From Catajapyx aquilonaris (taxonomy: Eukaryota): a DNA stretch of 64,000 bases. Where the stretch lies: NCBI GenBank assembly GCA_000934665.2, contig KZ537985.1, positions 1 through 64,000 of the forward strand, written 5' to 3'. This document shows, piece by piece, positions 8,494 through 11,400 of the stretch. The position numbers and the translations under genes are program-made. The notes beneath the pieces are model-generated. The model was not told the origin of the DNA and did not search any database. It saw only the letters and a program-made list of their open reading frames with translations. Numbering within the stretch: the stretch's first letter is position 1; every line of letters starts with the position of its first letter.

Positions 8494-11400
8494 GAGTGTG
8501 AGCTGCGAGTGTCCCCGAGAGAACCGTGTGGGTTATGGAAGGAGCAGGACCAGAACTGGCAGCGTCTTCGAGACAGACTGGACACCCTGCCGTACTGTAC
8601 TACTGGTGATTCAGAAGGCAAGTTTGTTACATCTGTTTATTTAAAAATCGCCTCCAATATGGAGGGTACAAATTACTCGCAGTATGTGCACCGTCCGATG
8701 ATCTTTCGTCCATTTTCGGTCCATTTACGACGACAGCACATGTTGCAACAGTCGTAGTCAAATCGGCACTGAAAATAGCCAATGTAATAGTGTCACCTTC
8801 GTAAAAGATGCCACTTACCAGCTCTCCTGCGATGTTACACTGCGCATCTTTTGGTCTGATCCCATGGCTGAATCCGTACATGGGCACGTCCGGAACAGTC
8901 TTGGGAGACTCGGAGTTGGCAACAATGGGCTGGGCAACAGGCGGAAACTGAGCGACAGGCGGTCTCTCCTCTGCATTGGCTTGTATGAATGTCCTCGCTT
9001 CTAGTGACCCCTTGTCTCCGGAGGATCTGCTTCTGGCTGAGGGTTTCTTTAAGGCGTCGCAACTGCTGAAGAGGATGAGGATGGCTATGGCAGCCAGACA
9101 CCGGACCAAGGTTGAGACCATGTTGAGCGATGCTGAGAACTGTCGACACAAGCTGTGGCTTCAGGGGTTTTATTCCAGAGAAGACGAATTCGGGGAATGT
9201 TTTCGGACAATGAGAATGGTTGCTCGGAATGTGTTTTTCAGGGAATTGTTATACCACGCTGGAATGTTAGTTGCGTATATGATGATGACGTCTATGAATT
9301 TTTCTGGAAGTCACGTATCATTCATCGTGGCATGTGGAGGATCCTTGAATACTAAAGTACATTACCAATAAGACCACTCCTCATTAACATTGCTTTTTAT
9401 TAGCAGTACAGTACATTTTTACACTGTTTATGGTGTCAAATACGCATTTTGCATTTGTGACTGGAAGTCACTGATTTGTTCTCGTTGACACGTGGCTCTG
9501 ACAGACCCGTCCATTCTGAACAAACGACGGCAGGAGTTGTAGCAGCAGTCCCAGTCTTTTTGACACTGAAACAATAACAAAATATCAACAATTTGAACTC
9601 CACGTATTGTTGTGACTTACTGACATATTCTCCAATCCATTTACAATGGCTGTGAACGCGAGTGATTTCCGGTGGGTAGAAGGACAACAGCTGCCAGGCA
9701 AATTTGAAGTCCTTTTCTACTGACGACATGTCGGTGCTCATTGTGGTCGTAGGTCTCGTAACACTAGGCTTGCTTCTGGGTGCAGGGGTGGTAGGAGTTG
9801 TATATTTTCTATACATAGGGTAAGGCTCGGGTGTGATTTGAAAAAGACTCCCTGCGATCATGTTGGTCAGGGTATCGATGTCGTATTCTTCGTATGTAGA
9901 GTCGGAGATATCATTGTGGTGTGAGATAGGTTTTGCTGTAGTGCTAGACTCGGGTTCTGTGCTGGTTGTATTCGTCGGTGTGGTTGTTGTAGTGGTAGTG
10001 GTAGGTTTAGTTGTGATGGTAGATACGGTTGTAGTAGTGGCCGTCGTGGTTATTGTGATGCTGGCTTCAGTTGTGGTGGTAGGAGTGGTGGCAGGAGTGG
10101 TGGCAGGAGTGGTGGCAGGAGTGGTGGTAGGAGTGGTGGTAGGAGTGGTGGTGGTAGGAATGGTGGTGGTAGGAATGGTGGTAGGAGTGGTGGTCGTGGT
10201 GATCGTGGTCATGATTGGGATGGTGGTGCTGATGCCATCTCCGACCGTCCTGTGCAGGTCGGTATGTTTCGCTTTGGGCCCCATGACTGTGTCGAAATCC
10301 CAGTATCCTAGTCGCTTTCTCTGCGACAATAATGTTTGCATCAGAGGCTTTAGAGTAGTCTTGGGACTGCCCATTCCAGGCCTGTTGGGAGCCTGGAGCC
10401 ATGACGATGGAATGTAATTGTGTTTAGGGATGACACGTTTTGGTTTCATCAGCGGTTGATTAGCTCCATTTTCTGTAAACTGTGCGTAAGGGTTACATTC
10501 AGGTCCCTGCGATAATTACGAGTGGTTTATGAAACCTGGGCTTACCGTGCGTTTGCTCAATGGTGTCCACAGCCTAGGTGGTGAGGGGCTGTAAATGTTC
10601 ACAATTTAATGATTTCAACATGTTGAAATTAAGTTGTTATGACGCTTATGTGTAAATCAATCGAAAACTCACTTGGGAAAAGATGATACGATACCACTTA
10701 GACCAAGCAGCAGAAGTATGGGTGCCAGCATAGTCTCTGCAATAGAAGAATGGTCGGTTTTTTACACGCCTTATTAAATAATTAATACTGCGATTAACAG
10801 TTGGTTGCTGTATAATAGTGCACCTCCTCGTTCAAAAACTGAAACTGAAAAACTCTAACAAAAACTGTCGCGACATACCAATAATTATGTATTAATTGTA
10901 ACTATTTAGAGTAGGCCAAAGAATCGCCATGTATTTAAACAATTGCCATCTTTTATCGATTTAAACTTGCAGACATCAGTGTAAACTTTCCATTACATGC
11001 GACAAATGCACCCATTTTACATGTATAAACATTTTACATATTTCTAAAAAAAATAATGGAATACTCACACACTTAAAAATGTAAAGGCATCCACTGTAAA
11101 TGTTAAATTCCGGAGAGAATTCCTTCCCACCAGACTCACTTCTGCATACTCAGAAAAAGACCCCTAAAACGTTCCGATTACAGCTACATAAACAAAACTT
11201 CCCATTGGTTGCTTATAGATGCACTACAATCCAAAAATTGATACAGGTTAATAAATAACCGCCGGATTCGCCCCTTTTAATGGCAATGTTGAGCTTTTCC
11301 GTTTTGCATTCCTAGAGTGCCTCGCTGCTGACTCCGTTAAGTCAACCCCCGACTTAAAAAAACAACGAAGATAACCAGACGCAAAACAGAAAGTTATTTG

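Follow-up and report, generated by a model that had tools for sequence, protein, structure and literature searches.

Tachystatin-type inhibitor cystine knot (ICK) peptides are antifungal and bind chitin, and the genes described for them in Nasonia (naickin-1 to -3) and Apis (amickin-1) contain a phase-0 intron directly before the second cysteine and encode peptides with an extended C-terminus that is rich in proline and basic residues (PMC2853521). Among crustaceans, the xibalbins of remipedes and further pancrustacean peptides are secreted and built on an ICK scaffold, in some cases with eight cysteines (PMC11288129), and the penaeidins and hyastatins are two-domain antimicrobial peptides, with a proline-rich and a cysteine-rich part, that have chitin- or microbe-binding roles (PMC4954822). 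Here we describe a putative gene at positions 8673-9121 of the minus strand in a 64,000-nucleotide (nt) stretch of contig KZ537985.1 (the whole stretch is hereafter called the window). This gene would encode a secreted protein with a C-terminal eight-cysteine domain, and it has a six-cysteine paralogue as its neighbour.

The order of the eight cysteines, C-C-CC-CC-C-C, is that of conotoxin framework XI, an ICK with a fourth disulfide, in which the cysteines pair as I-IV, II-VI, III-VII and V-VIII (PMC7912261); the initial annotation of this DNA had likewise named the framework and its fourth disulfide. In cone snails, peptides of framework XI act on channels as ligands, and in GXIA the cysteines occupy positions 1, 8, 14, 15, 19, 20, 24 and 31 (PMC7912261). 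The I1/framework XI conotoxin genes consist of three exons (signal, pro and mature), with the mature toxin unsplit in a single exon, and their introns exceed 3 kb and belong to phases 1 and 2 (PMC3862624).

We lean towards the view that the locus is a real, spliced two-exon animal gene for a secreted domain of the ICK type. The ATG at 9121 has favourable surroundings, with A at -3 and G at +4, and starts a first exon that extends to 8819, i.e. 303 nt or 101 codons by direct reading as well as by script recomputation. The N-terminus shows the order of a signal peptide (a basic residue, a hydrophobic core and small residues), with a maximal Kyte-Doolittle 10-residue mean of 3.31 at residues 9-18, and cleavage is predicted after residue 23. 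The region that follows, about 70 residues long, has no cysteine and is basic (isoelectric point, pI, 9.7). Removal of a 50-nt GT-AG intron then leads to a product of 132 amino acids (aa), of which the C-terminal 38 contain eight cysteines in the arrangement C-x6-C-x5-CC-x2-CC-x14-C-x2-C, with one residue between Cys8 and the stop. The initial annotation had proposed this same splice, pattern and stop, and script recomputation reproduced them. It had also proposed a signal-pro-mature precursor, in agreement with the predicted signal peptide, the cysteine-free middle and the C-terminal eight-cysteine domain of the spliced product, and the cationic stretch to which it drew attention (RRKWTENGRK) is indeed found inside the x14 loop.

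If the intron is retained, the frame remains open for 63 further codons past exon 1 and gives a 164-aa product whose tail holds a single cysteine, which is the unremarkable tail that had been reported for the unspliced frame. Upstream of the acceptor the cysteine-rich frame is open for just 8 codons, which contain no AG other than that of the acceptor; splicing at this site is therefore the single route into the frame. The GTAAGT donor at 8818 sits on a codon boundary, and the other GT dinucleotides shortly upstream were, by reading, off the boundary. The TATA-like AATAAAA upstream of the ATG is a possible core promoter.

The best support for the gene model is provided by the paralogue, which adjoins the eight-cysteine gene directly upstream and in the same orientation. 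Its modelled product comprises a signal peptide, a long mucin-like region rich in threonine, proline and serine (together 49% of residues 61-330, with 79 threonines among these 270 residues) and a C-terminal six-cysteine domain with the spacing C-x6-C-x5-CC-x3-C-x13-C. The last cysteine of the knot is followed by a polar, acidic tail of 19 residues with a lone proline at its end, and an AATAAA is present at 9401-9396 (minus strand). The intron place and phase are common to both genes: phase 0, immediately before Cys2. Across the junction, 12 of the 27 ungapped columns are identical (44%), with a BLOSUM62 score of 71; no composition shuffle out of 2000 scored as high, and one of 2000 did when the cysteines were kept fixed. 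Judged by their sequences, gene and paralogue arose by tandem duplication of a knot module that is split by an intron and, with this comparative evidence behind it, the model of the eight-cysteine gene appears sound and well supported.

The 5' exons of the paralogue model are tentative, because one of the modelled 5' introns is just 39 nt long. The total number of cysteines in the paralogue is odd (seven). Two donors that lie 4 nt apart in the paralogue could permit alternative splicing, so that the tail is made either with or without the knot.

The cysteine pattern exceeds chance expectation. A half-knot pattern (C-x4-7-CC-x2-4-C-x6-16-C), scanned over the six-frame translation of the window, occurs six times, against a mean of 0.105 and a maximum of 1 in 200 mononucleotide shuffles. 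Two of the six occurrences are exon 2 of the eight-cysteine gene and the corresponding exon of the paralogue. Of the remaining four, one falls in another reading frame of exon 1 and one in a tract of TGC repeats; those at 40705 and 41431 (both plus strand) have no gene context and were set aside as chance matches. The alternative frame of exon 1 (8835-8975, minus strand), which runs over the proline-rich region, also displays eight cysteines in the order C-C-CC-CC-C-C. It has no ATG start and no signal peptide, and it was rejected as a gene, its cysteine codons stemming from repeated Val-Ala pairs (GTTGCC read one base off).

A knottin fold is likely for the spliced domain, judging from its cysteine order and loops. 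The core loops measure 6, 5, 0, 3 and 14 residues in the eight-cysteine gene and 6, 5, 0, 3 and 13 in the paralogue, and the usual ranges for ICK loops are 3-7, 3-6, 0-5, 1-4 and 4-13. Since the six-cysteine paralogue lacks exactly Cys5 and Cys8, the domain can be read as a six-cysteine knot core plus one pair: Cys 1, 2, 3, 4, 6 and 7 would form the ICK core, and Cys5 and Cys8 would add a fourth disulfide, which fits the extra V-VIII bridge of framework XI. The queries used for folding, for Pfam and for the profile searches were single-exon pieces or a 31-position profile. AlphaFold2 modelled the exon-2 fragment alone (31 aa, without Cys1) with a mean predicted local distance difference test (pLDDT) score of 80.2 and a predicted template modelling (pTM) score of 0.33, the five models spanning a pLDDT of 59.7 to 80.2. 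The model has strands at residues 5-8, 11-18 and 21-30, with a hairpin turn inside the x14 loop. Foldseek returned no match in the PDB at an expect value (E) of 0.001 or less for this 31-residue fragment model, which is too small for such a test, and VIA-align scored 17 chains out of 48,161 at Z>=2 (best Z 2.7), all of them generic beta-hairpins.

The leads from sequence searches, weak but one-directional, point to knottin families. When the PDB was searched with the two-sequence profile A2 (31 positions without Cys1, built from the exons of the gene and its paralogue), the best match was mu-theraphotoxin-Cg1a at a non-significant E=0.018. The sole phmmer match was omega-atracotoxin-Hv1a (E=0.93, non-significant). 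The nearest named Atlas clusters of both exons were mostly knottins (spider ICK families, cyclotide), all below 0.9, a level that the tool itself treats as a lead only. A phmmer search of the PDB with the paralogue exon alone yielded just non-significant Sushi-domain hairpins. Scans of metagenome and viral contigs with A2 gave 161 and 74 pattern matches, respectively, none of which was confirmed by tblastn at E<=1e-3; these are weak negatives, as that value is almost out of reach for a query of 31 aa.

A secreted host-defence or surface-binding knottin is the most likely role among those considered, and we propose it tentatively. The knot would act as a stable binding head, of which the long beta-hairpin loop would present a cationic and aromatic face to anionic or chitinous surfaces. 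In the eight-cysteine gene this head would be carried on a proline-rich peptide, as in the crustacean antimicrobial peptides with a proline-rich and a cysteine-rich part, and in the paralogue it would top a mucin-like stalk. The antifungal and chitin-binding properties of tachystatin-type ICKs (PMC2853521) speak for such a role as well. No dibasic site was found next to the knot; in both paralogues one basic residue precedes Cys1 by 4-5 positions and might serve as a monobasic cleavage site. Since there is no dibasic site and the domain of the paralogue ends a 373-aa mucin-like protein, the knot domain may stay attached to its precursor; the release of a knottin, which the initial annotation had proposed, is not supported. 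A stalk of the mucin type is more in keeping with a tethered binding head than with a diffusible neurotoxin. On this reading the domain would serve in host defence or surface binding and would not be a neurotoxin for injection, and the reading as a toxin is unsupported.

Several observations weigh against the gene model, the fold or the proposed role. The gene model is a prediction from genomic sequence, and the splice of the paralogue depends on a weak donor, GTCAGT, with a perfect GTAAGT 4 nt downstream, the use of which would shift the frame and lose the cysteine-rich tail. The net charge of the knot domain is modest (7 lysines and arginines versus 5 aspartates and glutamates, pI 8.2), below what one expects of cationic antimicrobial peptides of the classical kind, and its last core loop (14) is one residue longer than the usual ICK range allows. 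The exon pieces matched no Pfam family, either at E<=1 or at E<=10. A HMMER search with A2 against 1,835,955,588 representatives gave two proteins at E<=0.001, both of them tandem-repeat artefacts that match positions 16-28 of the profile only, and a word-based search for proteins of 55-177 aa that resemble exon 1 (101 aa) gave no candidate. As regards the host, the tree of a methyltransferase encoded in the window, made from the window and 22 of the 120 listed matches (picked by name and top rank, 98 being omitted), places the window in an unresolved animal polytomy.

The same gene and fold could also yield a neuroactive peptide, i.e. an ion-channel modulator, either as an endogenous signal or as a component of venom, saliva or a defensive secretion, released at a monobasic site. 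The leads from sequence and features, weak as they are, all lie in the direction of spider toxins that act on ion channels, and the C-R-K/R-K-W stretch after the fifth core cysteine aligns with mu-theraphotoxin-Cg1a, but none of the spider-toxin matches reaches significance. Framework XI peptides bind channels in cone snails (PMC7912261), yet nothing points to a venomous organism here. Although the basic residue ahead of Cys1 in both paralogues offers a candidate monobasic site, a dibasic processing site is lacking, and a domain that is placed on a 373-aa mucin-like protein, as in the paralogue, is unsuited to a diffusible toxin. We regard a neuroactive peptide as unlikely.

It is more improbable still that the intron is kept or that the locus is silent, so that the 164-aa unspliced product or none at all is made and the cysteine frame is what is left of a duplicated knottin exon in decay. 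The unspliced frame does remain open over its 63 further codons and ends before the likely poly(A) site, and no homologue was found in the exon 1 word search or in the A2 HMMER search. The cysteine frame is nevertheless intact, with all eight cysteines and a stop one residue past the last, and it is joined to exon 1 by canonical splice sites that preserve the phase; moreover, the paralogue retains the split and the cysteine registers at 44% identity, which is unexpected for two independently decaying relics. We attach a similarly small probability to a correct gene model with some other disulfide-rich fold, without a penetrating knot or with vicinal or alternative pairings, for which the term knottin would be a misnomer. 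Such a fold would be in line with the x14 loop, which is long for an ICK; on the other hand, loops 1-4 (6, 5, 0, 3) are those of classical ICKs, the spacing of the paralogue equals that of omega-atracotoxin-Hv1a from Cys2 on, and the three strands of the fragment model are compatible with the expected sheet. The most likely interpretation, which we find credible, is a new, rather ordinary secreted cysteine-rich peptide. A more far-reaching proposal is that an old arthropod lineage of intron-split ICKs, recognizable by the phase-0 intron before Cys2 that hymenopteran ICK genes also have, independently evolved the framework XI arrangement (ICK plus one disulfide) in a crustacean-like animal and there also came to serve as the C-terminal head of a mucin; this is doubtful.

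The window is animal DNA, and its conserved genes (Table 1) contain introns of about 65 and 112 nt, among which an intron of 50 nt fits in. The best matches of the HSD17B10 exon, at 75-78% identity, are from Daphnia, many insects and some molluscs. For the O-methyltransferase exon the best named matches are from krill (62%), Penaeus (56%), Eriocheir (52%) and a barnacle (51%), followed by Lingula (47%), and no mollusc was found among the 120 matches listed. The flanking genes thus suggest a protostome, most like crustaceans and insects, and a pancrustacean arthropod affinity of the window is probable on the basis of these matches. Rfam gave no matches in the window and the tRNA scan (ARAGORN) no genes.

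Table 1. Features of the eight-cysteine gene, its paralogue and the conserved genes in the window
Feature	Position	Strand	Remarks
Exon 1, coding part	8819..9121	-	Start, signal peptide, cysteine-free Pro/Ala/Val-rich region, Cys1 and six residues
Predicted signal peptide, residues 1-23	9053..9121	-	Hydrophobic core at residues 9-18, followed by small residues
Tandem Pro-rich motif, residues 54-65	8927..8962	-	Five-residue unit, twice, with one residue between; in the cysteine-free region
Start of knot domain (Cys1 and loop 1)	8819..8839	-	Seven codons, end of exon 1
Phase-0 intron, 50 nt	8769..8818	-	GTAAGT donor, TTTTCAG acceptor; directly before Cys2
Exon 2, coding part	8673..8768	-	31 codons (8768..8676) with Cys2-Cys8; TAA stop at 8675..8673
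AATAAA polyadenylation signal	8636..8641	-	Begins 32 nt past the stop
TATA-like AATAAAA	9168..9174	-	About 47 nt upstream of the ATG; read by eye
Tandem paralogue, four-exon model	9428..10731	-	Exons 10731-10673, 10588-10546, 10506-9625 and 9565-9428; 373 aa
Phase-0 intron of paralogue, 59 nt	9566..9624	-	GTCAGT donor; directly before Cys2
Sulfotransfer_2 carbohydrate sulfotransferase	42970-44152	+	Two exons, intron of about 112 nt
Class I O-methyltransferase exon (Methyltransf_3)	58461-59042	-	
HSD17B10	61755-63469	+	Introns of about 65 nt and about 860 nt

Some other features of the window were observed. Nested inverted repeats at 7478-7666 (48-nt arms, 85% complementary and 2 nt apart, within a 31-nt pair at 87%) look like a small foldback element or one of the miniature inverted-repeat transposable element type, just downstream of the eight-cysteine gene, and AT-rich direct repeats of 54 nt are found at 6808-6985. 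A 561-codon open frame at 53079-54764 (plus strand) is Ser/Thr-rich, contains repeat units of about 40 residues and has no Pfam match; its product may be another mucin-like secreted protein. A long CAG/TGC-type repeat at 60850-60950, within long open reading frames, reads as poly-Gln on the plus strand and as poly-Cys on the minus strand; it was rejected as a cysteine-rich peptide, being low-complexity sequence instead. Stretches that resemble a tRNA T-arm (GGTTCGAACCCGGGACC-like) occur at 5200-5655 (plus strand) and at about 59060-59100 (minus strand); ARAGORN calls no tRNA there, and they may be fragments of tRNA-derived short interspersed nuclear elements.

Short cysteine-rich peptides with a knot that is split by a tiny intron are easily missed or mis-called by gene finders, and the locus shows that a paralogue with an intron in the same place can rescue such a gene call without RNA data. 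If splice and fold are as described, a framework-XI-type peptide (ICK plus one disulfide) exists outside the cone snails, together with a fusion of mucin and knottin. If the lineage proposal also holds, knottins would occur as modular, tethered binding heads besides free peptides, and the lineage would provide both six-cysteine ICK scaffolds and eight-cysteine ones with CC-x2-CC, neither of which was reported from crustaceans by a recent survey.

The eight-cysteine gene shares the C-C-CC-CC-C-C order with the conotoxin I-superfamily (GXIA, iota-RXIA, Tx11.3) and the first two loops, x6 and x5, with GXIA. It also resembles framework XI in the extra Cys5-Cys8 bridge that the comparison of gene and paralogue suggests. 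Its later loops (x2/x14/x2) differ from those of GXIA (x3/x3/x6) and, unlike the I1 genes, it consists of two exons separated by a single phase-0 intron of 50 nt that falls within the knot. A Pfam scan of exon 1, with the signal in it, gave no family at E<=1. Crustaceans and insects provide the best named matches of the flanking genes, and the window probably does not derive from a conoidean gastropod. The initial annotation had cautioned that the framework is no proof of homology to conotoxins, and the gene structure described for the latter (PMC3862624) bears this out: conotoxin homology was rejected on gene structure, as was I-superfamily membership, for which the probable taxon is a further obstacle, and the link to conotoxins is one of analogy only.

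With the spider ICK toxins omega-hexatoxin-Hv1a (1axh) and mu-theraphotoxin-Cg1a (8cjq) both a D-x-D-CC and a C-R-[KR]-K-[WF] stretch can be aligned, and by reading of the 1axh alignment the spacing of the paralogue (x5/0/x3/x13) equals that of Hv1a from Cys2 onward. Those toxins have six cysteines, whereas the gene has eight, and the matches range from E 0.018 to 0.93, with Atlas values below 0.9; for the spider families Toxin_12 and Omega-toxin, Pfam gave no match on the exon pieces without Cys1. The resemblance to the penaeidins and hyastatins is one of architecture only (signal peptide, proline-rich region and C-terminal cysteine-rich domain): no sequence match of these peptides to the gene was seen, and their cysteine-rich domains have six cysteines in another arrangement. 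Like the xibalbins, the product is predicted to be secreted and to combine an ICK scaffold with eight cysteines, but the pancrustacean eight-cysteine scaffold is reportedly agatoxin-like (C-C-CC-C-C-C-C) and not of the CC-x2-CC type.

The hymenopteran ICK genes are the closest gene-structural relative that was found, the comparison being one of gene structure. The eight-cysteine gene ends one residue past Cys8, without the proline-rich and basic C-terminal extension of naickin and amickin; its proline-rich part is N-terminal and it has two additional cysteines, and the polar, acidic tail of the paralogue is likewise unlike the hymenopteran C-terminus. The paralogue, in turn, has the plain six-cysteine ICK arrangement, and both genes have their intron at the same place and in the same phase as the hymenopteran genes. 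This agreement makes an old arthropod ICK lineage more likely than kinship with cone-snail toxins, and it suggests that the gene and its paralogue belong to such a lineage. If splice and fold are correct, the phase-0 intron before Cys2 links the ICK genes of insects to those of a probably crustacean genome, a link that bears on a single origin of the arthropod ICK peptides.

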